The position numbers and the translations under genes are program-made. This document shows, one piece after another, positions 1 through 19,153 of a DNA stretch of 32,000 bases. Source of the DNA: Promethearchaeum syntrophicum. Lineage in GTDB: Archaea > Asgardarchaeota > Lokiarchaeia > Sigyniarchaeales > Promethearchaeaceae. Location: NCBI RefSeq assembly GCF_008000775.2, contig NZ_CP042905.2:4170001-4202000 (forward strand), in the 5' to 3' direction. The notes under the pieces were generated by a model. The model made no database searches, had not been told where the DNA came from, and was given only the letters and a program-made list of their open reading frames with translations. Numbering within the stretch: position 1 is the stretch's first letter; every line of letters starts with the position of its first letter.

Positions 1-326
1 ATAAAAGTAATAAATGGGAGGATTGTATGGAATAATATATAAAGTTTCAAATATTTGGAAAAAATATCCTCATTCCAGTGTAGAGCACTATCATGAGCCA
101 TATTTACTGCAAAATATGGAATTCCATGTTCATAATTATTTGCCCACATGGCTATTACTAGCTCGTCATCCTTTACTTTATAAAAATGCTCTTCAGGATC
201 CGGAATATTTGTTTCTTCAAACATATCAATATTTGCATGGGAAGGGCGTTTTTTCAAATATCGATCCAATTTTACATCATAATAGATTTTTAGCAGTTTT
301 TCTTCTGCTTCTTCTTTAGATATCAT
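1..326 (-). CDS. Array paralog A1: subtype-A membrane protein of unknown function. Its 3' end is truncated by the window edge, so only the N-terminal 108 aa are visible.
   Basis: I translated the minus strand by hand from the ATG at 326..324. It gives MISKEEAEEKLLKIYYDVKLDRYLKKRPSHANIDMFEETNIPDPEEHFYKVKDDELVIAMWANNYEHGIPYFAVNMAHDSALHWNEDIFSKYLKLYILFHTILPFITF with no stop down to position 3. This is clearly homologous to ORFs 976..1581 and 2416..3018. It is absent from the ORF track because it has no stop inside the window; the track's + ORF 14..319 is its antisense shadow. Confidence 0.85.
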   Translation of the reverse strand, partial: MISKEEAEEKLLKIYYDVKLDRYLKKRPSHANIDMFEETNIPDPEEHFYKVKDDELVIAMWANNYEHGIPYFAVNMAHDSALHWNEDIFSKYLKLYILFHTILPFITF

Positions 327-328
327 CT

Positions 329-943
329 CTATGCTCCTTTACTGAATCCCATAACCCAGCTGATAACGAACAAAAAAATAACGAAACCTTGAAGTATAGT
401 AATACCAATCAAATCAGAAAAACGTGATTTTGAATGTTTTTTTATTTCTTCTTCAGGTAAATTTATCCCTGTGTTTTCAAATAACTCTCTAAAACGAATT
501 AAAACACGTTTTTTCCAGTTTATTTTTAATACTATGAAATAAATAATAATTCCTGTCCCCAGTATATTTAAGAGAATTGCTCCAATAAGTGAATAAAGCC
601 TAATAAAACCTACCAAAGTCATAAAAATTAAGGGGATAATCAAATGAGAATTTATATAAAGTTTCATACGTTTTCGCAAAGAATCCTCACGCCAGTACTT
701 TGCACTATCACAAGCCATAATTACAGCAAAAAAGGGAATTCCATGTTCATAGCTATTTGCAAACATTCCAATATTCAAAGTATCATCTTTAATACCAAAC
801 CAATCATCTAAATCATCAGGATCTTTTGTTTCTTCGAAATCGACAATTTTCGCACTGGTAGGATATAAGTCAAAATAGCTATCCAATTTTACATCATAAA
901 AAATTTTTAGCAGTTTTTCTTCTGCTTCCTCTTTTGATACCAT
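329..943 (-). CDS. Array paralog B1: subtype-B protein of unknown function (204 aa), with an N-terminal soluble domain of about 100 aa followed by 3 predicted TM helices.
   Basis: Shares the family N-terminus MVSKEEAEEKLLKIFYDVKLD. Carries the subtype-B signature DSYFDLYPTSA, plus the YEHGIPFFAV and WKKRVLIRFRELF motifs. Hydrophobic helices are HLIIPLIFMTLVGFI, IGAILLNILGTGIIIYFIVL and ITILQGFVIFLFVISWVMGF. Its TAG stop at 329..331 lies 2 nt from the A1 start codon. Confidence 0.85.
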   Translation of the reverse strand: MVSKEEAEEKLLKIFYDVKLDSYFDLYPTSAKIVDFEETKDPDDLDDWFGIKDDTLNIGMFANSYEHGIPFFAVIMACDSAKYWREDSLRKRMKLYINSHLIIPLIFMTLVGFIRLYSLIGAILLNILGTGIIIYFIVLKINWKKRVLIRFRELFENTGINLPEEEIKKHSKSRFSDLIGITILQGFVIFLFVISWVMGFSKGA

Positions 944-975
944 GTAATCAGCTCGTTTGATTTTTATCTATATTT

Positions 976-1581
976 TTATGTGAATATTATTACCCAACTT
1001 AATAAGAGCAAGAAAAATGCAAAACATTGAATGGTATTAAAAGAAGAAAAATCATTGTATAGTCTTTTTGAATATTGTTTGAATTTTTCTTCGGAAATAC
1101 TTATACCGGTGTCATCAAAGAACTCTCTGTATCGGATTAAAACTCGTTTTTTCCAATTATTTTTTAACACAACGAAATAAATTATAACACCAGTTACTAT
1201 CAAGTTTATCAAAATTGCTCCAAAAAGTGATTTAGATTTAATAATATACCCTAAAAAAAAAAAGATTAAAGGTAACAGCATATGGGATATTGTATATATG
1301 ATTAAATATTTGGATAAAGGATCTCCACGCCAAGATTCTGCACTATCAATAGCCATATTAACTGCAAAAAAAGGAATCCCATGTTCATAGCTATTTGCCC
1401 ACATGGCTATTACTAATTCATCATCCTTTACCTTATAAAAATGCTCTAGATGATTAAGATCTTTCGTTTCTTCAAACATGTCAATATTTGCATGGGTAGG
1501 GGTTTTTTTCAAATAACGATCCAATTTTACATCATAAAAAATTTTTAACAGTTTTTCTTCTGCTTCTAATTTAGAAATCAT
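976..1581 (-). CDS. Array paralog A2: subtype-A membrane protein of unknown function (201 aa).
   Basis: N-terminus MISKLEAEEKLLKIFYDVKLDRYLKKTPTHANIDMFEETK, then YKVKDDELVIAMWANSYEHGIPFFAV and WKKRVLIRYREFF, followed by 3 hydrophobic helices. It is closest to the partial gene at 1..326 and to 2416..3018. Confidence 0.85.
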   Translation of the reverse strand: MISKLEAEEKLLKIFYDVKLDRYLKKTPTHANIDMFEETKDLNHLEHFYKVKDDELVIAMWANSYEHGIPFFAVNMAIDSAESWRGDPLSKYLIIYTISHMLLPLIFFFLGYIIKSKSLFGAILINLIVTGVIIYFVVLKNNWKKRVLIRYREFFDDTGISISEEKFKQYSKRLYNDFSSFNTIQCFAFFLLLLSWVIIFT

Positions 1582-1645
1582 CCTAATAAAAAATAATTAA
1601 GATGTTGGAATATATAAATCATAATAGTACTTGTTCCATATTGAT

Positions 1646-2263
1646 CTATACTCCATTACTGAATCCCAGAGCCAAGCTGATAATTAACAAACAAAAAATA
1701 ACGAACCCTTGAAGGATAGTAATCGCAATTATATCTGGGAAACGTGATTTTGAATATTTTTTTATTTTTTCTTCTGGTAAATAAATACCTGTGTTTCCAA
1801 ATAGTTCTCTAAATCGGATTAAAACACGTTTTTTCCATTTTATTTTCAATATAATGAAATAAATAATTATTCCAATTCCCAGTAAATTTATGAGAATTGC
1901 TCCAATACGAGAATAAAGACTAATAAAACCTACCAAGAATATAAGGATTATTGGAATAATCAAATGAGAATATGCATATAGTTTCATATGTTTAGCCAAA
2001 GGATCCTCGCGCCAGTTTTTTGCACATCCATGAGCCATAATAACAGCAAAATAAGGAATACCATGTTCATAATTATTTGCCCACATGCCTATTAATAACT
2101 TATCATCCTCAATACAATACCAGCTATCAAATTCATCGGAATCCTTTGTTTCTCCGAATTCTTCAATACTAGCACTGGTAGGATATAAGTCGAAATAACT
2201 ATCTAATTTTGCATCGTAATAAATTTTTAGCAGTTTTTCTTCAGCTTCTTCTTTTGATATCAT
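1646..2263 (-). CDS. Array paralog B2: subtype-B membrane protein of unknown function (205 aa from the internal Met).
   Basis: The track ORF (1646..2380) carries a 39-aa N-terminal extension, MFPKAYILFFF..., that no paralog shares. All four other copies start at MISKEEAEEKLL, which here corresponds to the ATG at 2263..2261. The protein is near-collinear with B1 (DSYFDLYPTSA, WKKRVLIRFRELFGNTGIYLPEEKIKKYSKSRF). Confidence 0.8.
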   Translation of the reverse strand: MISKEEAEEKLLKIYYDAKLDSYFDLYPTSASIEEFGETKDSDEFDSWYCIEDDKLLIGMWANNYEHGIPYFAVIMAHGCAKNWREDPLAKHMKLYAYSHLIIPIILIFLVGFISLYSRIGAILINLLGIGIIIYFIILKIKWKKRVLIRFRELFGNTGIYLPEEKIKKYSKSRFPDIIAITILQGFVIFCLLIISLALGFSNGV

Positions 2264-2415
2264 CTGAATAAGAAATAATATGGAGTTTGAAATATATAAA
2301 ATTTTTTTGAATTTAGTATAACATAACTGGATAATATTGAATATTTTAAAAAAAAAAAGTATATATGCTTTGGGAAACAATTAAAAAGAATATGTTCTTA
2401 ACCAGTTGTGCTCCA

Positions 2416-3018
2416 CTATATAAAAACAGCCCAACTCATTATGGAAATAAGAAAAATAATACCTTGCATGAATGATAGCGCCCCACCATCTAGGAAATCC
2501 AATTTCAAATATTTTCTGCTTTTTTCTTCAGATAGAACAATACCAGTATTTTTGAACAGTTCTTTTAATCGGATTAAAGTTCGTTTTTTCCATTTAAATG
2601 CTAAAATAATGAAATAAATCAAAGTACATGATCCCAATATATTTATAATAATCGCTATTGGAGGGAAATCTTGATATGTAAGCAATCCCACGCTCATAGT
2701 TATTATTGGTATTATCAAATGAGATAAAACAAATAGGTTCATATGTTTTGAGAAGAAATCTTTACGGTAGTGTTTTGCACTATCTTTAGCCATCTTTGAA
2801 GCAATATAAGGAATTCCATGTTCATAACTATTTGCCCACATTGCAATTACTAGTTCATCATCCTCTATCTTATAATAATGACCTAAACGATTGGAATTTT
2901 TCGTTTCTTCGAACATGTTTATATTTGTGTGTGTAGGTTTTTTCTTATAATGATGATCCAATTTGACATCATAGAAAATTTTTAACAGTTTTTCTTCAGC
3001 CTCTTCTTTAGATATCAT
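2416..3018 (-). CDS. Array paralog A3: subtype-A membrane protein of unknown function (200 aa). It is the promoter-proximal gene of the array.
   Basis: Contains MISKEEAEEKLLKIFYDVKLDHHYKKKPTHTNINMFEETK, YKIEDDELVIAMWANSYEHGIPY and WKKRTLIRLKELF, followed by 3 hydrophobic helices. Confidence 0.85.
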   Translation of the reverse strand: MISKEEAEEKLLKIFYDVKLDHHYKKKPTHTNINMFEETKNSNRLGHYYKIEDDELVIAMWANSYEHGIPYIASKMAKDSAKHYRKDFFSKHMNLFVLSHLIIPIITMSVGLLTYQDFPPIAIIINILGSCTLIYFIILAFKWKKRTLIRLKELFKNTGIVLSEEKSRKYLKLDFLDGGALSFMQGIIFLISIMSWAVFI

Positions 3019-3074
3019 GTGATCAGATTATCCTATATTTATATAAAAAATTATTAGGTGTTTTAGATATATAA
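3019..3074. promoter_or_regulatory. Putative bidirectional archaeal promoter region between array gene A3 and the Roadblock-GTPase gene.
   Basis: The 56-bp divergent intergenic region contains TATA-like runs: tatatttatataaaaaa at 3034-3050 and agatatataa just before the ATG at 3075. This spacing would give short-leader or leaderless mRNAs. The call rests on motifs only. Confidence 0.35.
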
Positions 3075-4082
3075 ATGGTAATGGTTGATCGAAAAAAACT
3101 GGAAGCACTACTTCAATGGATGTTTCAAAGCATTGGTCAAGATTTGGAAGCTTTGGTAATTGTAGATCGGGAAGGTCTTGTAATAACTAGTCTTTTAAAA
3201 GAAGGAATTAATGAAGATGAAGATATTATAGGCGGAATGGCGGCTTTAGTCGAACCGGTTTTAAAGAGAATATCAAATGAATTTAAATCGGGCAGTTTTG
3301 GAACTGGAAGTTTTGATACTGAAAAAAACAGGTTAATTTTTTGCGAGGCGGGTCCCGACTCAATATTGGTGTTAGTCGCAAATGCCTTAGCCAGTCTCGA
3401 CAGACTTTTTCCCTATGCTTACCTATGTGCAGAAAAAATAACTCGTATTTTTGATGGGAGATCAGTTTCTCCAGTTATCCCGAATTTCATGCATGAAAAA
3501 GAAAAATTACATGGTAGTAAAGATATCAGCCAAATTTTAATCGAAGAGGGTTCTTTTGTTCTTAAAACGGTGTTATGTGGTTCGGGCGGTGTTGGGAAAA
3601 CAACTTTAGTAACTCAATTTATCCAATCAACTTTTGAAGCAGATTATAAAAGTACAATTGGGCTTCAAATAATGAAAAAAGCAGTTAATTTTGAACAGTG
3701 GAATACAGAAGTTAAATTCACAATTTTCGATCTCGCAGGACAACAACAATTTGCAAAAGTACGCCAGACTTATTTTCAAGGAGCAAAAGCAGGGTTTCTA
3801 ATTTTTGACGTCACCCGAAGAGAAACCTTTGAGGATATTGAAAATTGGTATAATGAAGCAAGACGTGTCGAATCTGATGTCATGTTGATCTTAGTTGCGA
3901 ATAAGATTGATTTAGAAAATGAGAGAAAAGTTACTGAAGAAGAGGGAAGAGCTTTAGCAGAAAAATTAAAACTCCAGTATCTTGAAACAAGCGCGTTAAA
4001 TAAAGATATTGTAGATGAGGCTTTTAAAACTCTTGCATTTTTATTTATCAGAGAAAATAAGTTAATGAAGGCATTAAATTGA
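3075..4082 (+). CDS. Roadblock/LC7 (MglB-like) domain fused to a Ras/Rab-like small GTPase (335 aa).
   Basis: The N-terminal ~125 aa have the Roadblock/LC7 pattern (LEALVIVDREGLVITSLL...IGGMAALVEPVL...LIFCEAGPDSILVLVA). The C-terminal half has a complete set of G motifs: G1 GSGGVGKT, switch I YKSTIG, G3 DLAGQ, G4 NKID and G5 ETSAL. Confidence 0.85.
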   Translation: MVMVDRKKLEALLQWMFQSIGQDLEALVIVDREGLVITSLLKEGINEDEDIIGGMAALVEPVLKRISNEFKSGSFGTGSFDTEKNRLIFCEAGPDSILVLVANALASLDRLFPYAYLCAEKITRIFDGRSVSPVIPNFMHEKEKLHGSKDISQILIEEGSFVLKTVLCGSGGVGKTTLVTQFIQSTFEADYKSTIGLQIMKKAVNFEQWNTEVKFTIFDLAGQQQFAKVRQTYFQGAKAGFLIFDVTRRETFEDIENWYNEARRVESDVMLILVANKIDLENERKVTEEEGRALAEKLKLQYLETSALNKDIVDEAFKTLAFLFIRENKLMKALN

Positions 4083-4107
4083 AAGAAAATGAAGAGAGAA
4101 ATTATAA

Positions 4108-5130
4108 ATGAGTTTTAAAATAGCATATTTACTACCATATGAAAGCACTCCTCATGTGTATGTTGTTAAATCAGAAGAAACAACAGATCCACAGTATGGA
4201 TGCAAACCCCAAGATCGTTCATTAACAATGCTAATTAAAACAGGTATTGTCAATTTAGATAAACCTTCAGGTCCAACAAGTCATGAGGTGGCTTCTTGGG
4301 TAAAAAAAGTTCTTGGATTGGAAAAAACAGGTCATGGCGGAACATTAGATCCAGGAGTTACAGGAGTATTACCCGTAGCCTTAGGTCCTGCCACAAAAGT
4401 TATAGGAGCTTTATTGAGTGCGGGGAAGGAATATATTTGTGTTATGTATCTCCATGGGGATGTAGAAGAAAAAAAAATCCGTAATGTTTTGAACCTTTTT
4501 ACAACTAATTTATATCAACGTCCTCCAATTAAATCTTCAGTGGCGCGAAGACTTAGAACTCGCAGAATATACTATACCCAATTTATGGAAATGAAGGGAA
4601 GATTTGTTCTTTTTCGTGTTGGATGTGAAGCTGGTACTTACATTCGAAAATTGTGTTTTGATATTGGGGAAGCTCTGTTATGCGGAGCTCACATGTCTGA
4701 ATTACGGCGATCAAGAACGGGTGAATTTCGTGAGGATTCCCTTTGCACCTTACAAGATTTAAACGATGCAATGAAATTATATCAGGAAGAGAGAAATCCC
4801 GAATATCTAAAGAATTTAATAATTCCAATGGAAAAAGCAGTACATCATTGGAAAAAAATATATATTCGCGATTCTGCTGTTGATGCCATAGCTCATGGTG
4901 CAAGTTTAGCAGTAGCGGGAGTCTTATATTTAGAAAAAACTATTGAAAAGGATGAACAAGTAGCAGTTATGACGCAAAAAGGAGAATTGGTTGCTTTTGG
5001 CGTCGCATTGATGAGTTCCGCAAGGATGCTCAAAGTGTTTCATGGATTATGTGTAAGTACAAAGAAAGTTTTTATGGAACGAGGCGTATATCCACACTGG
5101 AAGTCAACACCTAAAGAAATCATACCATAA
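4108..5130 (+). CDS. cbf5: Cbf5, the H/ACA RNP pseudouridine synthase (TruB family with a C-terminal PUA domain).
   Basis: Motifs LDKPSGPTSHEV and GHGGTLDPGVTGVLPV (catalytic Asp) are present. The YQRPP, RRLR and GTYIR motifs, a PUA-like C-terminus and a length of 340 aa are all typical of archaeal Cbf5. Confidence 0.9.
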   Translation: MSFKIAYLLPYESTPHVYVVKSEETTDPQYGCKPQDRSLTMLIKTGIVNLDKPSGPTSHEVASWVKKVLGLEKTGHGGTLDPGVTGVLPVALGPATKVIGALLSAGKEYICVMYLHGDVEEKKIRNVLNLFTTNLYQRPPIKSSVARRLRTRRIYYTQFMEMKGRFVLFRVGCEAGTYIRKLCFDIGEALLCGAHMSELRRSRTGEFREDSLCTLQDLNDAMKLYQEERNPEYLKNLIIPMEKAVHHWKKIYIRDSAVDAIAHGASLAVAGVLYLEKTIEKDEQVAVMTQKGELVAFGVALMSSARMLKVFHGLCVSTKKVFMERGVYPHWKSTPKEIIP

Positions 5131-5146
5131 ATTGGTAGGGAAAAAA

Positions 5147-5860
5147 ATGACTCCACCAAAAAATGAACAGTATTTTAGTAAACGACCGAAATCAGAATTA
5201 AAGGTCCGTAAACTTTTTGAATCCATCCGAAAACACACATTGAATTTACAAACTTCTACTGGAGTTTTTAGTCCAGAAAATGTAGATAAAGGAACTCGAA
5301 TTTTAATTGAAAATCTAATTCTTCCAGAAAGTTATCCCGGAATGAAAATTTTGGAGATTGGCGCCGGTTACGGTCCAATAAGCATTTGGTTAGAAAAAGA
5401 ATATCAATTACAAAATCAAATAAATGATAATACTCCCCCAATTCCTAATATATATGCATCTGAAATCAATGAAAGAGCAGTTTGGCTGCTAAATCGAAAT
5501 ATTATTACTAATAATTGTAAAAATATCACCGTTTTAAAGGGTGATTTTCTGGATCATTTTGAAACTTTAAAAGAAAAAGGTGTTACTTTTCAAGCAATAT
5601 ACACAAATCCTCCGTTGAAAACAGGTCATGCCACCATGCTAGATTTATTTGAGCAAGCAATGGACTTATTGGCACCCAATGGGTTTATTCAATATGTGCA
5701 TATGAAAAAATTAGGCGCACCAGGTTTTCTAAAAAAGTTAAAAATAATTCAACCTGATTGGTTCTTTACTATTGTTCGGAAAAAGGGAGGATATCAAGTA
5801 ATAATCATAAGTCCAACCAAATTTGAAATAGAGTCAAAGCCTTCTACAGGTTATTTTTAA
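5147..5860 (+). CDS. Class I SAM-dependent methyltransferase of the MTS/RsmC-like small-domain type, with an NPPL motif.
   Basis: SAM-binding motif ILEIGAGYGPISI and catalytic-type motif YTNPPLKTG. The ATG at 5147 is preferred over the track's TTG at 5132, and an SD-like ggtaggg lies upstream. The gene starts 17 nt after the cbf5 stop, so the two are probably co-transcribed. The substrate cannot be told from the sequence. Confidence 0.7.
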   Translation: MTPPKNEQYFSKRPKSELKVRKLFESIRKHTLNLQTSTGVFSPENVDKGTRILIENLILPESYPGMKILEIGAGYGPISIWLEKEYQLQNQINDNTPPIPNIYASEINERAVWLLNRNIITNNCKNITVLKGDFLDHFETLKEKGVTFQAIYTNPPLKTGHATMLDLFEQAMDLLAPNGFIQYVHMKKLGAPGFLKKLKIIQPDWFFTIVRKKGGYQVIIISPTKFEIESKPSTGYF

Positions 5861-5884
5861 ATTTGGGTTTTTCTGAGAAAAATT

Positions 5885-7141
5885 CTACTTATCATTTGGG
5901 AAGATTTTTACAAGATAGAGAAGTTCTAAGGGAATTAATAAAAGGGTGATTATAAATGGAGCGATGTAGTGAACTTTTGCAATAATTAATCCTGAAATCA
6001 GCCCCATTGGCATAAATCCTAATGCCAAGATCAAATTCATTATCCCATAATATTCAGTGGGTTTTTTTTTATCTAGATTGGAAAGTAGAGCCATTTGAGC
6101 AGGTAAAAATACTGAAACTACAATTCCGAGTACAAAATGAGCTGCATATAAGAAAGGCATAAGATATTGATCTCTAAAAACCCAGCCGAGTAAAGCAAAT
6201 CCAAATATTACAAATCCTAAGGAATCTCCTAAGAACAAACTCCATTTTTTCCCTATTTTATCCACCAAATGTCCACAGGGAATTTGAAAAATCATATTCG
6301 AAATATTAAATATTATGATAATGACCCCAATCTGTTCTTTGGTTAAACTATAATTCGCTACTAAAGCCCCAGTATATATTGATAATGAAATGCCCCATAT
6401 CATTGAATCTACTAAAAAAAAAATAATTATTCTACGATTTTTTGGATTTTTAAAAATAGTTATCCAAGAAGATTCTGATTTCAAATCTTTTTTTACTGTT
6501 TCTTCTGATAGAACAGATTCTACGTCTTTGGATTGGAATGGTTGGGCAGATTTTTCTTCTTTAAGGAAGAAAAATTGAATAAAGATTTGGAGAATAATAA
6601 TGCCTGCAAATATACCAAAGTAAAATTGAGCAGGTTTTCCCAAATAAGTCACCATCAAATTTCCTCCTATGCTTCCCGCAAAATATCCAAAAAACATAAG
6701 ACTAAACATTAAACCATGTTTCTTGTCTTCACTATTCTCTCTAGTAAAAATTTGTTTTGGTGGATCTCTTATCCCATAACCAAGAAAAATAAGAGTAATA
6801 CCACTAATGATTAACACTAATTCTTGAAAAATTACAATTATTATGAGTCCAACTACAATCATGGATAAACCAATAAGGATTAATGATTTTCGCCCATGTT
6901 TATCTGCAATTTTTCCCGACAATTGCATTGGGAGAAGCTGCATAAGCATTCCAAATGTAGCTAGATAACCAAGAATAACCTCAGATTGCGTAATTTCATA
7001 TAAATACGGTTGATATACAACATTAAACATGCTAAAGCCAAAACCATGAATAATATTTGTAATAAATATGGTATATAAATTCTTTTTTTTAAATTGTTGA
7101 AGTTTTAAATGATCTGAATTAGTAGGCACGGGAGATCTCAT
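5885..7141 (-). CDS. Major facilitator superfamily (MFS) transporter.
   Basis: The 418-aa protein has about 12 hydrophobic helices in two halves separated by a charged central loop (KEEKSAQPFQSKDVESVLSEETVKKDLK). An MFS-like motif, GKIADKHGRK, follows TM2. Confidence 0.75.
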   Translation of the reverse strand: MRSPVPTNSDHLKLQQFKKKNLYTIFITNIIHGFGFSMFNVVYQPYLYEITQSEVILGYLATFGMLMQLLPMQLSGKIADKHGRKSLILIGLSMIVVGLIIIVIFQELVLIISGITLIFLGYGIRDPPKQIFTRENSEDKKHGLMFSLMFFGYFAGSIGGNLMVTYLGKPAQFYFGIFAGIIILQIFIQFFFLKEEKSAQPFQSKDVESVLSEETVKKDLKSESSWITIFKNPKNRRIIIFFLVDSMIWGISLSIYTGALVANYSLTKEQIGVIIIIFNISNMIFQIPCGHLVDKIGKKWSLFLGDSLGFVIFGFALLGWVFRDQYLMPFLYAAHFVLGIVVSVFLPAQMALLSNLDKKKPTEYYGIMNLILALGFMPMGLISGLIIAKVHYIAPFIITLLLIPLELLYLVKIFPNDK

Positions 7142-7208
7142 GTATTATCTAAACTGATAAGGTTAACGCGTCTCATAAACTCTTTTATTTTCGATCAGCT
7201 TATGTAAT

Positions 7209-7227
7209 CGAAAAATTTTTTTAATAT
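7209..7227 (+). promoter_or_regulatory. Candidate BRE/TATA element for the rpoH-rpoB transcription unit.
   Basis: The sequence cgaaaaatttttttaatat lies about 80 nt upstream of the rpoH start. The call rests on the motif only. Confidence 0.25.
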
Positions 7228-7306
7228 GTTGATTTCAAATGACTGTGCACAGAATTAACTTCTTATTAGTTGATTCTAAAAAAAAACTTATTTTCTCCCA
7301 AAAGAG

Positions 7307-7591
7307 TTGAATTCATCTTTGGTTACTACTAAAAAAACAAAAAAAATTGACGTATTGGCTCATGTAAGTGTTCCCTTTCATACCATACTCACAAAAAAAG
7401 AGACTACCCAGCTGTTAAAAGATTATTCTATTCGATTAGTGAATCTCCCCAGAATGTTCACGGATGATCCGGCAGCTTTGTCACTTGGCGCTTGCGAAGG
7501 AGATGTTCTTAAAATTATCCGTAAATCATCTACGACAGTTGATACAATTGAAACTTATCGATTTTGTGTTAAACGGAGGACAGACAAATGA
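7307..7591 (+). CDS. rpoH: DNA-directed RNA polymerase subunit H (Rpo5).
   Basis: HVSVPFHTILTKKETTQLLKDYSIRLVNLPRMFTDDPAALSLGACEGDVLKIIRKSSTTVDTIETYRFCV matches the conserved RpoH/Rpb5 C-terminal pattern (H.VP.H..L...E.........LP.I...DP......GDV.KI.R.S...G....YR.V). The start is a TTG with no in-frame ATG, so it is uncertain. The stop overlaps the rpoB start in ATGA. Confidence 0.85.
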   Translation: MNSSLVTTKKTKKIDVLAHVSVPFHTILTKKETTQLLKDYSIRLVNLPRMFTDDPAALSLGACEGDVLKIIRKSSTTVDTIETYRFCVKRRTDK

Positions 7592-10500
7592 CAATCGCTG
7601 CAAATAAAATTAATAGTGGAATTAAATCAGAAGATATGTGGGTTCTTTTAAGCGCATATTTCAAAGAAATAGGGTTAGTTCGTCAGCATTTGGACTCATT
7701 TGACGTGTTTCTAGAAGACACACTTCAACAGATCTGCGATGAAACTAAAAAAATCATCCCTGATATCCCCGATTTTTATATTATTTTTGGAAAAATCACA
7801 GTAGAAAGCCCAGCAGTACGTGAAGCAGATGGGGCTACTAAAACTATCACACCTCTTGAAGCTCGTATACGAGAACTTACTTATGCTAGTAAAATATTTC
7901 TGGAAATGACTCCTGTAACGGTTGATGAACGTACTCAACGAGCTAATTATAACGAAACCATCAAAACATACATTGGAAAACTCCCAATTATGTTGAAATC
8001 ATCCAAATGCTCATTACAAACGCTTTCACCTGAAGAACTGATTAATATCGGTGAAGATCCTCTTGATCCTGGTGGTTATTTCATAATCAATGGAACCGAA
8101 CGTGCTTTAGTTACGCAAGAAGATTTAGCTCCCAATAGGATCTTAATTGAAGAAGCAAGCCGAAGTTCATCAGCAACTCATATAGCAAAAGTATTTTCCA
8201 CAACCCATGGATTTAGAGCACCAGTTACTATTGAAAGACGAAAAGATGGAAACATTCGTGTTGCATTACCTTCAGTTCCTGGAAAAATCCCAATTGCGAT
8301 CTTAATGCGCGCATTGGGTTTAGCTTCAGATAAACGTATTTTTGAAGCAATTAGTGATAATCCAGAAATTCAGAAAGAATTAATTCCAATTATAGATGTC
8401 GCTTCTGCGATAGATATTTCATCCGATCAACAAAAATCCATGATGAATGCATTGGATTATGTTGGAAAACGTGTTGCGGTTGGACAAACAAGAGAATATC
8501 GTATCAAAAGAGCACAACAAGTGTTAGATCGATATTTATTACCTCATATTGGATATGAAAAAGAAGACCGAATTAAAAAAGCATATTTCCTCGGTCAAAT
8601 GACACAAAAAGTATTAGAATTAGCACTTGAAATTCGAAGACCTGATGATAAAGACCATTACTCGAATAAACGATTAAAACTCGCCGGAGATTTGTTCACT
8701 TCTCTTTTCCGAGTATCTTTCCTCAATTTAACCCGAGATATTAAGTACCAATTAGAAAGAACTGCTGTAAGGGGTCGAAAACCTAATATTAAAACCGCCG
8801 TTCGAGCAGATGTTATTACTGAACGAATCAGACATGCATTAGCCACAGGAAATTGGGTTGGTGGAAAAGCAGGCGTATCACAATTATTAGATCGAACCAA
8901 TTTCATCTCAACTTTAAGCCATTTACGGCGAATTATTTCTCCACTTAGCAGAAGTCAACCTCATTTTGAAGCTCGAGATTTACATCCTACTCAATGGGGA
9001 AAAATATGCCCTGCAGAGACTCCAGAAGGGCCTAATTGTGGTTTAGTAAAAAATCTTGCTCTAACTGCTTTGATATCAGTTGGAACCAACGAAAAACGAA
9101 TTGAAACTGCATTATATGATTTAGGCGTAATTCCATTAGAAGAAGTAGAAGAAGTTAGCGGTAAAGCCAAAATATTTCTGAATGGAAAATTACTCGGAGT
9201 TCATCCGAATTACATTCCCCTATTAGAAACAATCAGAATGAAAAGACGCAGAGGAGATCTCAATGCAAACGTAAATTTAGCCTTTTATCACGATTCAAAC
9301 GAAATTCAAATTAACTGTGATGCAGGACGCGCCAGAAGACCTCTATTAGTAGTCCAAAATGGTAAAATCTTATTAACTATTGAAGACGTTGATAAAATCC
9401 GAAAGGGATTAAGTACCTGGAACGACCTTATTGCGCGCGGTATCATTGAATATTTCGATGCAGAAGAAGAAGAAAATGCACTTATTGCAATAAACGAAAG
9501 AGATATCACACTAGAACATACTCATCTTGAAATTGCACCTGCTGCAATTTTAGGAATTACAGCATCTCTTATTCCTTTCCCAGATCACAATCAAAGTCCT
9601 CGAAATACTTATGAAGCAGGAATGGCCAAGCAAGCCCTTGGGATTTTTGCTGCAAACTTTCATTTACGACTTGATACTCGCGGTCATCTATTACATTATC
9701 CGCAAAAACCACTGGTAAGCACTCGAGCTATGGAGATTGTTGGTTTTGATACTCGCCCAGCAGGACAAAATTTCGTTTTAGGAATTATGTCTTTTCAAGG
9801 ATTTAACATTGAAGATGCCCTCATTATGAATAAAGCTTCAGTAGAGCGTGGACTTTCACGAAGCACCTTCTTCCGAACTTATGAAGGTGAAGAAAGGAAA
9901 TATCCGGGCGGACAACTCGATAAATTCGAAATTCCCGAAAAAGAAGTACGAGGATATCGTGCCTCAGAAGCTTATCGTCATTTAGCTTACGACGGAGTTA
10001 TCGAACCAGAAACCGAATGCTTAGGAGGGGATGTATTAATTGGAAGAACCAGCCCACCTAGATTCACACACCCTTACGATGATTTCGATGATATGAGTCA
10101 ACCTCAGCGAAGAGAAACATCTATCAATATGCGACATAGTGAAAAAGGAATAGTAGATACTGTAATACTTACTGAAACTTTAGATGGAAATAAATTAATT
10201 AAAATAAAAGTTCGCGATTTACGAATTCCAGAATTAGGTGATAAATTTGCATCACGCCACGGACAAAAAGGAGTACTTGGATTAATCTGTCCTCAAGAAG
10301 ATATGCCATTTTCAGCAGAAGGTATTGTTCCAGATTTAGTTATCAACCCTCATGCTATTCCTTCCCGTATGACTTTAGGGCAGATGTTTGAAGGTTGTGC
10401 AGGAAAAATTGCAGCTGCAGTTGGTCATGTAGCTAACGGAACACCTTTTGAAATGGAAGATATGGATGAATTGCAACTACAATTAGTCGAAAATGGATTT

Positions 10501-10974
10501 GATTATGGCGGTCGGGAAACTCTTTATAACGGAGTCACCGGCAAAAAATATGACGTTGCAATCTATTTTGCTTGTGTCTATTATCAAAAATTACACCATC
10601 TTGTTGCAGATAAGATTCATGCTCGTGCACGCGGTCCAGTTCAGATTTTAACACGTCAACCAACCGAAGGTCGAGCCCGTGAAGGAGGATTAAGGTTCGG
10701 AGAAATGGAACGGGATTGTCTAGTCGGCCATGGTTCGGCAGTTTTACTCAAAGAAAGATTATTAGATGAATCAGATCGAACCCAAATATTAATCTGTGAG
10801 AAATGTGGACTTTTGGGTATATATGATAGAAATAGAGATAGAACTTACTGCCCAATTTGTGGAGAAAAATCATTAATCTCTTCCGTTACATGTTCTTATG
10901 CTTTTAAATTACTATTACAAGAAATGATGTCATTAGGATTAGCACCGAGATTGATTTTGAAAGATCGGGCTTAA
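7588..10974 (+). CDS. rpoB: DNA-directed RNA polymerase subunit B (Rpo2), unsplit at 1128 aa.
   Basis: Full-length collinear RNAP second-largest subunit. Motifs include GYFIINGTERA, HYSNKRL, HPTQWGKICPAETPEGPNCGLVKNLA, NQSPRNTYEAGMAKQA, GDKFASRHGQKG, HAIPSRMT, GEMERDC and a C-terminal Zn ribbon (CEKCG...CPICG). A GGAGG lies 8 nt upstream of the ATG. Confidence 0.97.
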   Translation: MTIAANKINSGIKSEDMWVLLSAYFKEIGLVRQHLDSFDVFLEDTLQQICDETKKIIPDIPDFYIIFGKITVESPAVREADGATKTITPLEARIRELTYASKIFLEMTPVTVDERTQRANYNETIKTYIGKLPIMLKSSKCSLQTLSPEELINIGEDPLDPGGYFIINGTERALVTQEDLAPNRILIEEASRSSSATHIAKVFSTTHGFRAPVTIERRKDGNIRVALPSVPGKIPIAILMRALGLASDKRIFEAISDNPEIQKELIPIIDVASAIDISSDQQKSMMNALDYVGKRVAVGQTREYRIKRAQQVLDRYLLPHIGYEKEDRIKKAYFLGQMTQKVLELALEIRRPDDKDHYSNKRLKLAGDLFTSLFRVSFLNLTRDIKYQLERTAVRGRKPNIKTAVRADVITERIRHALATGNWVGGKAGVSQLLDRTNFISTLSHLRRIISPLSRSQPHFEARDLHPTQWGKICPAETPEGPNCGLVKNLALTALISVGTNEKRIETALYDLGVIPLEEVEEVSGKAKIFLNGKLLGVHPNYIPLLETIRMKRRRGDLNANVNLAFYHDSNEIQINCDAGRARRPLLVVQNGKILLTIEDVDKIRKGLSTWNDLIARGIIEYFDAEEEENALIAINERDITLEHTHLEIAPAAILGITASLIPFPDHNQSPRNTYEAGMAKQALGIFAANFHLRLDTRGHLLHYPQKPLVSTRAMEIVGFDTRPAGQNFVLGIMSFQGFNIEDALIMNKASVERGLSRSTFFRTYEGEERKYPGGQLDKFEIPEKEVRGYRASEAYRHLAYDGVIEPETECLGGDVLIGRTSPPRFTHPYDDFDDMSQPQRRETSINMRHSEKGIVDTVILTETLDGNKLIKIKVRDLRIPELGDKFASRHGQKGVLGLICPQEDMPFSAEGIVPDLVINPHAIPSRMTLGQMFEGCAGKIAAAVGHVANGTPFEMEDMDELQLQLVENGFDYGGRETLYNGVTGKKYDVAIYFACVYYQKLHHLVADKIHARARGPVQILTRQPTEGRAREGGLRFGEMERDCLVGHGSAVLLKERLLDESDRTQILICEKCGLLGIYDRNRDRTYCPICGEKSLISSVTCSYAFKLLLQEMMSLGLAPRLILKDRA

Positions 10975-10990
10975 TTCCTTTTTTCTACTT
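10975..10990 (+). terminator. Candidate oligo-T archaeal terminator after rpoB.
   Basis: A T6 run (ccttttttct) follows the rpoB stop directly, and further T-rich tracts sit downstream (tttgtttttt). Confidence 0.3.
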
Positions 10991-11302
10991 ATTCTATTAC
11001 TATTTGTTAGCTCAATTTACTTTGTTTTTTAAGAATGACGTATTAACCAAAACGTCGTGAATAATATATGAATGATGTAAAAAAAAAACATAAATTACCA
11101 AAATATGTGTTTTGTAAGACTAATTGCTTGATTAAGATCAGGTATATTAACAGAATTATTATCCTTCATAAATGAAATATAAATTTACTTGTTTTTAAAT
11201 GGGAGAGGGAATCTGTCAGACAGAATCAATATTAATGTAATATTTATATATAACCTAAAAAATTTAATTCTACAATTTCATGATAAGGATTGTTGATTTT
11301 TT

Positions 11303-11791
11303 ATGGATGAAGAAAAAAAGAAAAAGAATATTGTGAAAGAAATTTCAAAAGGGGTTAACGTAGCGAAAAAAGTTAAAAAAGGAGTTATAATGGGGTTAAA
11401 GGCAATAGATACGGTTGCACCGGGAACACTTGAAGCAGTGGGGAACACTTTAGAAAGCGTCCAGGATAATTTTGAAAAGCATATTGGGAATCAGATAGAA
11501 CAACATATAGATACCTTTCAAAGTAAGTTAGATGAAAAATACGGAGATACTATCGAAGAGAAAATTGATGATGTTGATGGGGCAATTCGATCAAAGATGG
11601 GGAATTTTGAGGATAAATTTTCAGATACGCTGGAAAATTTAGACAAAAACGTTATTACTCCTTTAAAAAACAAAGCGGTCCCTGTAATAAAAAGAGTAAA
11701 GGAAAAATCTGCAGAAATTATGAAATCAACAAAAGAAACGATTGAGAAGAGAAAAGAGATCGCGAAAGAAAAGAAAGCAGAAGAAGTTTAA
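11303..11791 (+). CDS. Hypothetical K/E-rich, predicted all-helical protein (162 aa).
   Basis: The ORF is highly charged with low-complexity ends (MDEEKKKKN..., ...KRKEIAKEKKAEEV). A roughly 15-residue periodicity is visible in the centre. I recognise no family. Confidence 0.55.
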   Translation: MDEEKKKKNIVKEISKGVNVAKKVKKGVIMGLKAIDTVAPGTLEAVGNTLESVQDNFEKHIGNQIEQHIDTFQSKLDEKYGDTIEEKIDDVDGAIRSKMGNFEDKFSDTLENLDKNVITPLKNKAVPVIKRVKEKSAEIMKSTKETIEKRKEIAKEKKAEEV

Positions 11792-11814
11792 TAGAAAGAT
11801 TTTTTATTAATATT

Positions 11815-12027
11815 ATGGTTGAAAATAAAGAGCCACAGACAGCTAGAAATGTTTATGGCATTTTAGCAACGATCTGTTTATTAGCATTTTTATTTCAATG
11901 TATCTATATGTTTCTCCAATGGGGAGATATTGAAGAAGGAGGCTCTCAAGAGTTAGAGTATTTAACGATGTTTATAGGAATTGCAGGGATGTTTTTTCTA
12001 GTTCTAAACCGTACAAGTCATAATTAA
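11815..12027 (+). CDS. Small hypothetical membrane protein (70 aa, 2 TM).
   Basis: Two hydrophobic helices (ILATICLLAFLFQCIYMFL and MFIGIAGMFFLVL). It starts 23 nt after the preceding gene. Confidence 0.45.
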   Translation: MVENKEPQTARNVYGILATICLLAFLFQCIYMFLQWGDIEEGGSQELEYLTMFIGIAGMFFLVLNRTSHN

Positions 12028-12554
12028 AATATAATTTGCTTTTCTGTTTTAATATCAGCAGCCCAACCATCAAGTAAGAAATTATGATGTTTAATGATTT
12101 CTGCAGCCTTCAATACTGGTGAATCAAAAGTAGTATGCCCATCTTTTACCAGAATAACATTATATTCTAAATCTGATGCCTGACGACATGTTGTATCAAC
12201 ACACATCTCAGTTTGAATCCCACAGAGAATTATATTATGGACACCTAAATTATCCAAGGTCTGCTTTAATTCAGTTTTATAGAACGCATTTGGTCGGGTT
12301 TTTGAAATTACAATATCTTCTGCTAAAGGAGCAATTCGCTGATGGACTTTGAAACCTTCAGTTGTAGGATCCAAAGAATCTCCTGCATCTCCTTTATGTT
12401 GAATATATATTATAGGGATATCATCATAACGCGCTTTTTTAATTAGACACTCCAATGTATCCAAAAGTTCGTTCCCATTATACAGAGGATAATTAGGATC
12501 GGTAAACATGCCAATTTGAACGTCTATAATCATGAGAGCAGTATTTTTTTCCAT
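12024..12554 (-). CDS. Isochorismatase-family cysteine hydrolase (nicotinamidase-like).
   Basis: N-terminal ALMIIDVQ (catalytic Asp), a K residue in ISKTRPNAF, and the nucleophile Cys in ILCGIQTEMCVDTT. A length of 176 aa is typical of the family. Confidence 0.85.
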   Translation of the reverse strand: MEKNTALMIIDVQIGMFTDPNYPLYNGNELLDTLECLIKKARYDDIPIIYIQHKGDAGDSLDPTTEGFKVHQRIAPLAEDIVISKTRPNAFYKTELKQTLDNLGVHNIILCGIQTEMCVDTTCRQASDLEYNVILVKDGHTTFDSPVLKAAEIIKHHNFLLDGWAADIKTEKQIIF

Positions 12555-12658
12555 AGAACACTTTGAGATACACCTTATTTAAAGATCTGGATTAACTCTA
12601 ATAATAAATTTCGAAAATTAATATTACGGTTTTTTTATGATTTTTCATTGTATTGATC

Positions 12659-13468
12659 ATGAATGAAAGAAAAGATTTCATTAATAATGAGAAAATTATC
12701 TCCGATGCTTTGGATTTATCTATCATATTGGTTAATGTAGAATCATCAGGAAATGTTGGATCCGTAGCACGGGTAATGAAAAATTTCGGATTTCACAAAT
12801 TAATCTTATTTAATCCCAAAGAAGAGCCAAAAAGTAAATATGCTTATGGATTTGCAATGCATGCCCAAGAAATTCTAGAAAATGCCCAAGTTATTTATAC
12901 TGATAATCAAGAAGGACCCGAAGGTTTAAAATTTCTCCTTCAAAAATTTGATTTGGTAATAGGAACGAGTGCAAAAGGAATAGTTAGAAAAAATCTTAAA
13001 AGAATCCCTATTTTTCTGAACGAATTGGATTTTTCATTATTCACGAAAAAATCTAAGGTAGCTCTGGTTTTTGGTAGGGAATCTACAGGTCTTACAAATA
13101 ATGAAATCCAATTAATGGATTTTTTACTAAGAATTCCTGCAGATTATGATTATCCTACGCTTAATATTTCCCAAGCAGTGGGAATTATCTTATATTCGTT
13201 CTACTTAAAATCTCATCAAATAGGCCGACAGGAAATTTCGCTAGCAACTAAAGGAAAGCGTGATTTGTTGCTTAAACATATCAATGATACAATTAATTAT
13301 ATACCGATGCAGAAATTCAGAACTGAACGAACCCTTCAATCATTTAAAAATTTTTTAGGACGCGCTTTTCTCTCTGAAAAAGAATCATCCTATTTACTGC
13401 ATTTCTTCCAAAAAGTAAACCTTGCAATAGAAAATCCATCATTATTTAAAAAGAACATAAAAAAGTAA
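12659..13468 (+). CDS. trmJ: SPOUT-class RNA 2'-O-methyltransferase of the TrmJ/LasT family.
   Basis: SPOUT motifs SGNVGSVARVMKNFGF, VFGRESTGLTNNE and IPADYDYPTLNISQAVGIILY, plus a C-terminal extension. The ATG at 12659 is preferred over the track's TTG at 12653. Confidence 0.7.
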   Translation: MNERKDFINNEKIISDALDLSIILVNVESSGNVGSVARVMKNFGFHKLILFNPKEEPKSKYAYGFAMHAQEILENAQVIYTDNQEGPEGLKFLLQKFDLVIGTSAKGIVRKNLKRIPIFLNELDFSLFTKKSKVALVFGRESTGLTNNEIQLMDFLLRIPADYDYPTLNISQAVGIILYSFYLKSHQIGRQEISLATKGKRDLLLKHINDTINYIPMQKFRTERTLQSFKNFLGRAFLSEKESSYLLHFFQKVNLAIENPSLFKKNIKK

Positions 13469-18466: not shown

Positions 18467-18550
18467 ATGATGAGATTTTATATATCCATTTTAATTAATT
18501 TTAAAATGTTTTAGTTATTTTTAGAATATTTAAGTTTTGATTAAAATATG

Positions 18551-19153
18551 TTAACTTATTTTGAATACCCAATCTTCAGTTGAATGGGTTTTTTGTAGCT
18601 CGATTTGCATTCCTATAAATGATTTCTTGAGTTTTGTTATTAAGAGTTCCATAGATTTTTTTTTTTTCAGATAGCTAATTGCGATAATTGCACTATCTTT
18701 CTTTACCCTATTAATTTCTTCTAATCCAAGATCAAGATTGGGTAAATTTTGAAGACTTGTAAATGCATAAATATATTTAAAATGGTTTGAACGAAAGGGA
18801 AGATGCTCTCCATCACAACAAACAAATAGAACATCCTTAATATGCGGTTTTGGGAGATTTTTAGTAAAATTTAATTTATCTTTAAATATATTTAGCATCC
18901 CTATTGATATATCAATACATATTAACCGGGTTTTTTGACTTTGTTCCTTATTTTGAATTTTTGAATTAAAGAAATCCCATAATAAACCAGTTCCACACCC
19001 ATAATCCAATAGCATTATTGGATCTTTATCTAAAGGTTGCCAAAAAGGCTCAAACTTCTCAAATTGAATCGCCTTATATCTTCTATCATAAATTTCATTA
19101 TAGCTTTCCGAATTGTAACTCTCAATAATTTTTTTCTTCTTTTTTTCATTCAT
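18551..19153 (-). CDS. Class I SAM-dependent methyltransferase (200 aa).
   Basis: Motif I MLLDYGCGTGLL, an acidic residue at the end of beta-2 (CIDIS), and post-motif CCDGEHLPF. The substrate is unknown. Confidence 0.7.
   Translation of the reverse strand: MNEKKKKKIIESYNSESYNEIYDRRYKAIQFEKFEPFWQPLDKDPIMLLDYGCGTGLLWDFFNSKIQNKEQSQKTRLICIDISIGMLNIFKDKLNFTKNLPKPHIKDVLFVCCDGEHLPFRSNHFKYIYAFTSLQNLPNLDLGLEEINRVKKDSAIIAISYLKKKKSMELLITKLKKSFIGMQIELQKTHSTEDWVFKIS

Follow-up and report, generated by a model that had tools for sequence, protein, structure and literature searches.

A tandem array of three-transmembrane proteins in Promethearchaeum syntrophicum MK-D1 belongs to an orphan family so far known only from Asgard archaea

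Introduction

Only very few Asgard archaea are in culture, Promethearchaeum syntrophicum among them, and for most of its lineage-specific membrane proteins no function has been assigned. Here we analyse a tandem array of six genes (DSAG12_00375 to 00370) in P. syntrophicum MK-D1 which encode membrane proteins of about 200 aa; five-sixths of the array lie at the beginning of a 32-kb stretch of the genome, referred to below as the window. Our analysis showed that the proteins form an orphan, previously undescribed family, so far known only from Asgard archaea, and that the array grew by tandem duplication and has been remodelled between close relatives by loss, pseudogenisation and recombination. 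As a protein family it is new, but gene arrays that behave in this way are familiar; the case is a well-described orphan rather than a discovery.

Tandem arrays of type VII secretion system (T7SS) immunity genes (esaG, tipC and tsaI) are known from Firmicutes (Garrett et al. 2022, PMC9484751). Like these, the array of MK-D1 is a string of non-identical paralogues with common blocks of high similarity, and its copy number shifts between close strains, presumably via recombination between paralogues; some of the T7SS members (TsaI) are membrane proteins as well. Unlike them, the present array is archaeal, has no toxin or secretion system nearby, and shows no sequence or fold relationship to the T7SS proteins. 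Moreover, its strongest constraint falls on a common cytoplasmic head, no positive selection was detected, and the distant members of the family are single-copy. In the tandem paralogue cluster lpl of Staphylococcus aureus (Tsuru and Kobayashi 2008, PMC2568036), the evolving unit spans adjacent genes, and the B-to-A gene pair with its spacer described below behaves as such a multi-gene unit. However, the lpl products are exported bacterial lipoproteins, whereas ours are N-in proteins with three transmembrane (TM) helices, and there is no homology between the two.

Anti-phage TM effectors, represented in PADLOC by '2TM/4TM effector' models, also combine a small soluble domain with few TM helices, and single paralogues of the array matched them at E=0.002-0.05. 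These matches, however, cover hydrophobic segments only and were not reproduced across paralogues, and no signal-generating enzyme or sensor gene is adjacent to the array. The immunity proteins of pore-forming colicins (Cai/Cei) are small inner-membrane proteins of 3-4 TM helices whose specificity lies in TM helix contacts; they are not known to have a conserved cytoplasmic head of 85 aa, are encoded beside the toxin gene on plasmids, and are not known to be homologous to the array family. Three TM helices together with basic cytosolic helices that dock a cytosolic partner are found in Get1 and Get2 (WRB/CAML), two proteins that act together, and in the Oxa1 superfamily, to which archaeal DUF106/Ylp1 belongs. 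Unlike in Get1/Oxa1, the hairpin comes first in the array proteins, followed by the cytosolic helices and then TM3. No Pfam match to Get1 or DUF106 was obtained, and Foldseek against PDB returned no such structure.

The array and its protein family

The window opens with five consecutive minus-strand paralogues (positions 1-3018, DSAG12_00371-00375), identified from the list of open reading frames (ORFs) and by hand translation. They align over their full length with 46 invariant columns among the first 108 residues, their pairwise identity is 50-74%, and all five match the family hidden Markov model (HMM) at E<=1e-57, which confirms the five homologous genes for proteins of about 200 aa reported in a preliminary description of this DNA. 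The gene that was missing from its ORF track (326..3) is real, as it could be completed to a protein of 202 aa (A1) on L001, a Logan contig which overlaps the window edge and gives the full A1 and the genes beyond position 1. The array had also been expected to continue upstream of the window. It does so, but not far: beyond position 1, L001 contains the rest of A1, one divergent sixth copy (DSAG12_00370, C type, ~45% identity) and then TusA. In the order of transcription, from DSAG12_00375 to 00370, the array therefore reads D-B2-A2-B1-A1-C. No further copy was found elsewhere in the 32-kb window with the family HMM, and the homology search listed no other MK-D1 protein of the family.

All five family genes of the window lie on the minus strand. 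A1 (DSAG12_00371) is cut by the window edge, with its 5′ 108 codons at 1..326 and its full length at 10618-11226 of L001. With rising coordinates it is followed by B1 (DSAG12_00372, 204 aa) at 329..943, A2 (DSAG12_00373, 201 aa) at 976..1581, B2 (DSAG12_00374, 205 aa) at 1646..2263, and the D-type gene (DSAG12_00375, 200 aa), earlier counted as a third A copy ('A3'), at 2416..3018. A 244-aa ORF for B2 starting from a TTG at 2380 was rejected as an ORF-calling artefact whose extra 39 codons are non-coding. The start was placed at 2263 because the MISKEEAEE start found there and the spacer upstream of it are both conserved.

A HMMER profile search of 1.84 billion cluster representatives returned only 25 proteins, and scans of genomes and metagenomes added one and eight loci, respectively, mostly short. 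Short fragments aside, the relatives are about 200 aa long and keep the same architecture down to 20-30% identity, including a Thorarchaeota protein. The named sources are Promethearchaeum, 'Promethearchaeota archaeon' metagenome-assembled genomes (MAGs), and one Thorarchaeota MAG, all of them Asgard archaea.

The earlier statement that no known family is recognisable has held throughout, as nothing significant was found in Pfam, NCBIfam, PADLOC, PHROGs or PDB, or by Foldseek. The first four were searched with the full proteins and, separately, with the heads (n=34). The best Pfam match was DUF5363 with 11.9 bits against a cut-off of 25.8, and the best NCBIfam match of a full-length paralogue had E=0.24. 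The 34 heads gave one-off matches only (best E=0.0036, exoglucanase CbhB, one member), and no Pfam family recurred in more than three of them. PADLOC gave weak matches due to TM composition (best E=0.002), and those in PHROGs were only weak. A hint of TumA/PDC-M44A (E=0.019-0.25) was dropped as it involved one or two members only. No significant match was obtained in a sequence-profile search of PDB. Foldseek was run with the full model on PDB and BFVD and with the head on PDB; the best E was 0.08, TM-scores were <=0.43, and no fold relative of the predicted structure was detected in the libraries searched. DSAG12_00370-00375 are mentioned in no paper, and the single paper with DSAG12 tags omits them.

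A COMM domain was also considered. Members of the COMM family are soluble proteins with a C-terminal COMM domain after a helical HN domain, and COMMD-like proteins have been reported from Asgard archaea (PMC13392464). This candidate was rejected, since the array proteins are membrane proteins with a different domain order, and no COMMD chain appeared in Foldseek against PDB.

Protein architecture and selective constraint

The proteins consist of four parts: a head of 85 residues, a TM1-TM2 hairpin, a basic WKKR helix-loop-helix, and a third TM helix. With a 39-sequence family alignment as input, AlphaFold2 predicted full-length A2 with a pLDDT of 90.6 and a pTM of 0.80, and the head alone with a pLDDT of 94.1. 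The predicted order of the head fold is alpha-alpha-beta-beta-beta-alpha, with helices at residues 4-17 and 20-24, strands at 30-38, 46-52 and 55-62, and a helix at 65-82. TM1 (residues 93-115) is followed by one continuous helix (119-158) comprising TM2 and the basic WKKRVLIRFRE segment, then by a short helix (164-170) and by TM3 (172-200). Hydropathy gave the same three TM segments, and both methods thus back the soluble N-terminal domain and three TM helices of the preliminary description. The juxtamembrane segment, described there as basic and amphipathic, is indeed basic, but only weakly amphipathic (hydrophobic moment muH 0.26-0.30).

Residues 140-172 carry 7-11 Lys/Arg, and five of the six heads are acidic, the exception being that of the D-type protein (15 K+R vs 15 D+E). 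Basic segments of membrane proteins face the cytoplasm according to the positive-inside rule. Under this rule the charge distribution points to an N-in/C-out topology, in which the head and the basic loop would be cytoplasmic and almost nothing would be exposed outside. The outside loop between TM1 and TM2 has 4-5 residues and the C-terminal tail 0-5, which speaks against the variable external membrane sensor that had been considered for the array.

Near-invariant residues sit in the head and in the WKKR loop, and in the TM helices just Y135/F136 are near-invariant. The N-terminal peptide, MISKEEAEEKLLKIFYD, had been taken as invariant; it is nearly so, as B1 begins with MVSK, A2 with MISKLE, and B2 has YDAKLD. 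The helix following the beta-sheet reads SYEHGIPFFAVNMA, whose E66/H67 are lost in distant members. Neither the family alignment nor the searches revealed a catalytic or channel signature.

Among the paralogues, residues 1-21 are 88% identical, residues 56-90 and the basic loop 63% each, TM1-2 40%, and TM3 32%. The ratio of nonsynonymous to synonymous substitution rates (dN/dS) between paralogues is 0.20-0.48, and between orthologue pairs it is 0.08-0.38 in the head, 0.06-0.27 in the basic loop, 0.13-0.80 in TM1-2, and 0.12-1.5 in TM3, where counts are small. No robust positive selection was found in the orthologue pairs. This indicates that the genes are functional, with the cytosolic parts under purifying selection and the TM helices relaxed. 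Gene conversion was examined as a cause of the constant N-terminus and rejected: among identical residues, codons are identical in 73% of cases in residues 1-21 and in 63-73% elsewhere. Because synonymous differences are as frequent in codons 1-21 as in the remainder, the near-invariance of the N-terminus is due to selection at the protein level.

Subfamilies and the B-A gene pair

The five copies of the window had been described as two subtypes in strict A-B-A-B-A alternation. This is right for B2-A2-B1-A1, but the supposed A3 forms a subfamily of its own (D) and the sixth gene is of C type. The phylogeny likewise upheld only part of the proposed A and B clades. Bootstrap support is 100% for the clade of B1, B2 and their environmental orthologues, in which B1 is sister to P0020 at 98%; A1 and A2 fall in a looser A clade, with A1 sister to P0010. 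A3 groups with its orthologue P0028 from L019 (100% bootstrap) and, with distant members as outgroups, stands outside A+B+E. The sixth gene (00370) belongs to a well-supported C clade.

A and B proteins differ chiefly in head segment 22-55, and it is only in this segment that A3 resembles A. Its N-terminal domain is 65% identical to those of the A proteins, but after residue 108 the identity is just 35% to A2 and 39-46% to the B proteins, and the TM region shares 24/51 identities with B2 vs 14/51 with A2. The motif KK.PTHANI, held to mark A, was also found in subfamilies E, F and G. Since it is present in these three other subfamilies, it is the ancestral state, and DLYPTSA the derived state of B.

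The preliminary description further proposed that a two-gene module, not a single gene, was duplicated, and our results suggest that this is probably correct for the B-to-A pair. The synonymous divergence (dS) between A1 and A2 (0.57) is close to that between B1 and B2 (0.52). The trees show the same pattern for A and for B: close environmental orthologues exist for copy 1, whereas the branch of copy 2 is more basal. An intact B gene is followed directly by an A gene in all five cases, which come from four arrays, and in four of these pairs the spacer is a conserved one of 64-67 nt carrying the TATA-like element GATTTATATATTCC about 30 nt before the ATG. In the window this is the B2-to-A2 spacer (1582..1645, minus strand, 64 nt; the element belongs to repeat family D3), which is also kept in L010, L018 and L019. 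On these four grounds we consider that the pair was probably duplicated as a block.

The remaining junction, B1/A1, has only 2 nt (327..328, minus strand; GCA TAG AG ATG, with GGAG within the 3′ end of B1). The gap, from which translational coupling had been proposed, is real but found in MK-D1 alone; the usual spacer, 64-67 nt in the other four junctions, has its own TATA-like element, and the 2-nt junction is a derived state. On the minus strand as well, the D-to-B2 spacer (2264..2415, 152 nt) contains a TATA-like element and is conserved with the D-to-B spacer of L019, and the A2-to-B1 spacer (944..975, 32 nt) is without the repeated TATA-like upstream element. TATA-like elements are also present in the 56-nt divergent intergenic region between the array and the neighbouring GTPase gene (3019..3074). 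If GATTTATATATTCC and the other TATA-like elements are promoters, as we infer, predicted promoter elements would precede D, B2 and A2, but not B1 or A1; D and B2 would each be transcribed alone, and A2-B1-A1(-C) would be one transcription unit.

A strict dependency of A and B on each other was not borne out by co-occurrence. B is always followed by A, but A-type genes without any B occur in L011, L007, L004, L015 and L020, and L002 has neither of them (E and C only). These distributions, together with the uniqueness of the 2-nt junction to MK-D1, mean that an obligate A-B pair is not supported.

Turnover of the array among close relatives

The array is a recombination-prone hotspot beside a GTPase gene with Roadblock and Ras domains, in a family confined to very few relatives. 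In close relatives the copy number at this one locus is 1-6, and the Roadblock domain of the adjoining GTPase is 89-95% identical between strains. Compared with D-B2-A2-B1-A1-C in MK-D1, the related contigs (L numbers; '...' in the strings is kept as recorded) have A'-D-B-A... in L019, ...B2-A-C... in L010, B-A in L018, A-C'-C... in L011, relic-C'-A-C in L007, E-C in L002, A in L020, F... in L017, and a lone B pseudogene with an in-frame stop in L006. Where a C-type gene occurs, no family gene follows it, and the first gene beside the GTPase varies between genomes. L002, from the sister species Promethearchaeum sp. CSMAG_2396, has its two-gene array (10726-12741) followed by a 671-aa TPR protein and not by TusA, indicating that the distal flank of the hotspot is rearranged as well.

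Several copies are damaged. The B-type copy with an in-frame stop (L006:9707-10288) is the sole family gene next to the GTPase there, and an A-type copy at another locus (L014:18-622) is split into four pieces. The two look like pseudogenes, although assembly errors are possible. At the array head of L007 (1095-1241), a 49-aa ORF joins profile positions 1-18 directly to 179-202 of an E-type gene. Its C-terminal part matches an E-type protein at 100% over 24 aa, and the ORF is a family gene reduced to an internal-deletion relic.

Loss of units probably took place by homologous recombination. The B gene of L010 is a clear B2 orthologue (90 vs 14 informative sites), and B1- and B2-type genes are both present in the environment, from which we infer that L010 (B2-A-C) lost one unit of B-A length relative to MK-D1.

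In the five environmental A-clade genes tested, the 5′ end is like A2 of MK-D1 and the rest like A1. The breakpoint lies near nt 165 in four of them and at nt ~222 in the A gene of L020. It is clearest in the A gene of L010 (18:2 vs 27:81 sites), where none of 10,000 permutations reached the observed value. Either recombination or conversion has thus taken place at least once at the conserved block DDELVIAMWAN, or the 5′ end of A1 has diverged privately in MK-D1. The A gene of L010 is not a strain-specific A2/A1 chimera formed by unequal crossover, because the same breakpoint is found in other loci. B2/B1 chimeras in L019 and L018 were also rejected, as there was no significant breakpoint.

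Possible functions

Our preferred, tentative reading is that the proteins may be membrane-tethered cytoplasmic adaptors or scaffolds, and not enzymes, channels or external sensors. At the inner membrane surface, one common cytoplasmic partner would be bound by the head, whose first helix is charged and near-invariant, and by the basic juxtamembrane loop. The TM helices, three in number, would serve mainly as an anchor and an oligomerisation surface and be free to drift, and the paralogues would supply variant, possibly mixed, assemblies. Adaptors of this kind could reveal how proteins are arranged on the inner side of the Asgard membrane, including the small GTPases of these cells, which lack lipid anchors. 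Several points weigh against such a function. No partner was identified, and the literature holds no experiment or expression data on these genes. The relaxed evolution of the TM helices fits specificity-determining helices as well as simple anchoring. The variation in copy number (1-6) and subtype content, the pseudogenes, and the possibly dispensable sole copy in L006 are more like an accessory or conflict-related element than a core scaffold.

These last features would also fit an immunity or defence array. Every paralogue would then act against its own membrane-acting toxin or its own virus, the variable TM helices and head segment 22-55 would confer specificity, and the array would be a collection of orphan immunities, comparable to the esaG/tipC/tsaI strings or to the immunity proteins of pore-forming colicins. 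The preliminary description had noted a likeness to polymorphic immunity-gene arrays, and the evolutionary behaviour does resemble them: non-identical tandem paralogues share conserved sequence blocks, their number varies at a single hotspot beside a well-conserved neighbour, and pseudogenes (L006, L014), a deletion relic (L007) and a mosaic phylogenetic signal in A-type genes are present. Most of the variation lies in the TM helices, the family has a very narrow taxonomic range, and the parallel with T7SS immunity genes (PMC9484751) has been drawn above. While tandem diversified paralogues of variable copy number were found, linkage to a toxin or its delivery was not: in the contigs examined, no toxin, secretion-system, nuclease or mobile-element gene stands beside the array. 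No family member was found on IMG/VR viral contigs, and the PADLOC matches reflect TM composition. The absence of robust positive selection, with the strongest constraint on the common cytoplasmic head, is unexpected for toxin-specific immunities, and the distant members are single-copy in unrelated housekeeping contexts. We regard an immunity function as rather unlikely but as the main rival reading, and if true it would point to an unrecognised conflict system in Asgard archaea. The earlier proposal that A and B act together, for example in a heteromeric membrane complex, was also considered in its strict form, in which neither works without the other and A+B is the functional unit. The constant B-to-A adjacency, with its spacer conserved in four of the five pairs, the agreeing duplication ages of the A pair and the B pair, and the 2-nt junction of MK-D1, whose internal GGAG suggests coupled translation of B1 and A1, are in keeping with this. 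However, A stands without B in at least five arrays and L002 lacks both, A has its own TATA-like element outside MK-D1, the adjacency is explicable by common descent among close relatives, and the A/B differences in head segment 22-55 do not suggest complementary surfaces. Such a complex seems improbable.

The proteins could otherwise serve small GTPases of the Roadblock type as membrane receptors or anchors, in a role like that of a Ragulator-like anchor, with the head docking the neighbouring Roadblock-Ras GTPase or, in other Asgard lineages, a RagA/Gtr1-like GTPase. The window has a gene for a Roadblock/LC7 and Ras-like small GTPase at 3075..4082 on the plus strand (Pfam Ras 7e-48, Robl_LC7 1.5e-5), which we treat as context only. 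The same neighbour was found in L002, L006, L011, L017 and L020, and in the Promethearchaeum loci which have that flank on the contig the array is 56-70 nt from the divergently transcribed GTPase gene. In L008 (5113-6799), a family member of ~30% identity lies 115 nt downstream of a gene for a Gtr1/RagA-like GTPase on the same strand (323 aa, Pfam 2e-25), and a receptor of this kind would need just such a membrane-anchored head facing the cytoplasm. But the Promethearchaeum loci are one syntenic region and count once, so the adjacency is found in only two of six independent contexts; the members in L003, L004, L009 and L022 (Thorarchaeota) have other neighbours and no adjacent GTPase. Small GTPase genes are also dense in these contigs (7.4 kb of L008 and 12 kb of L022 hold two each), and two of six is therefore compatible with chance. 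The two GTPases differ in architecture, and hhalign of the head against the Roadblock domain of the neighbour gave a probability of 0.1%. An anchor for these GTPases is hardly probable on this evidence, and it is a long shot that the proteins are Asgard-specific integral-membrane docking receptors for Roadblock-type GTPases whose paralogues define distinct membrane sites. If receptors for GTPases they were, they would be an archaeal TM counterpart of the Ragulator-type anchor and a first handle on the membrane targeting of GTPases in Asgard archaea. A head that is itself Roadblock-like was rejected: none of the 34 heads matched the Robl_LC7 model of Pfam, the hhalign result was negative, and the head has three strands only, the criterion for the Roadblock/LC7 fold (MglB, LAMTOR) being alpha-beta-beta-alpha-beta-beta-beta-alpha. 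Last, weak Foldseek matches to zincins recurred with both models (ZMPSTE24, TTHA0227, DPP III, SprT-like, M61 and M34), as might be expected of a degenerate membrane-bound zincin-like (pseudo)protease with a minimal zincin fold that has lost HExxH. None of them was better than E=0.08, a probability of 0.35 or a TM-score of 0.36; HExxH and any other conserved metal ligand are absent, distant members have lost E66/H67, and no peptidase family of Pfam matches, so that this origin is very improbable.

Genomic neighbourhood and minor features

Across the contigs, the neighbours of family genes are GTPase, Cbf5, methyltransferase, MFS, TusA/DsrE, TPR protein, hydrolase, chaperone operon, APH and acetyltransferase genes. 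In the window, the Roadblock-Ras GTPase gene is followed by genes for Cbf5, a methyltransferase, an MFS transporter, Rpb5 and RpoB. In L008 there is a second, Arf-like GTPase with an adjacent unknown protein of 186 aa, 2 kb further upstream.

A viral or mobile-element origin of the array was considered and rejected, since no member is found in IMG/VR and the 32-kb window contains no tRNA, no Rfam family match and a single tandem repeat, distant from the array. In this repeat (18488-18562), which lies between two convergent genes, an AT-rich unit of 20 nt occurs 3.7 times.

The GC content of the array (window 1-3000) is 0.27-0.30, against 0.31-0.39 for most of the housekeeping neighbours (3001-11000). 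This low value could reflect the amino-acid composition of membrane proteins or a different history. Antisense ORFs of 55-101 aa are present opposite the family genes at 14-319, 644-811 and 2408-2617, all on the plus strand; they recur on L001 solely because L001 is the same sequence, and we regard them not as genes but as a side effect of the AT-rich coding strand.

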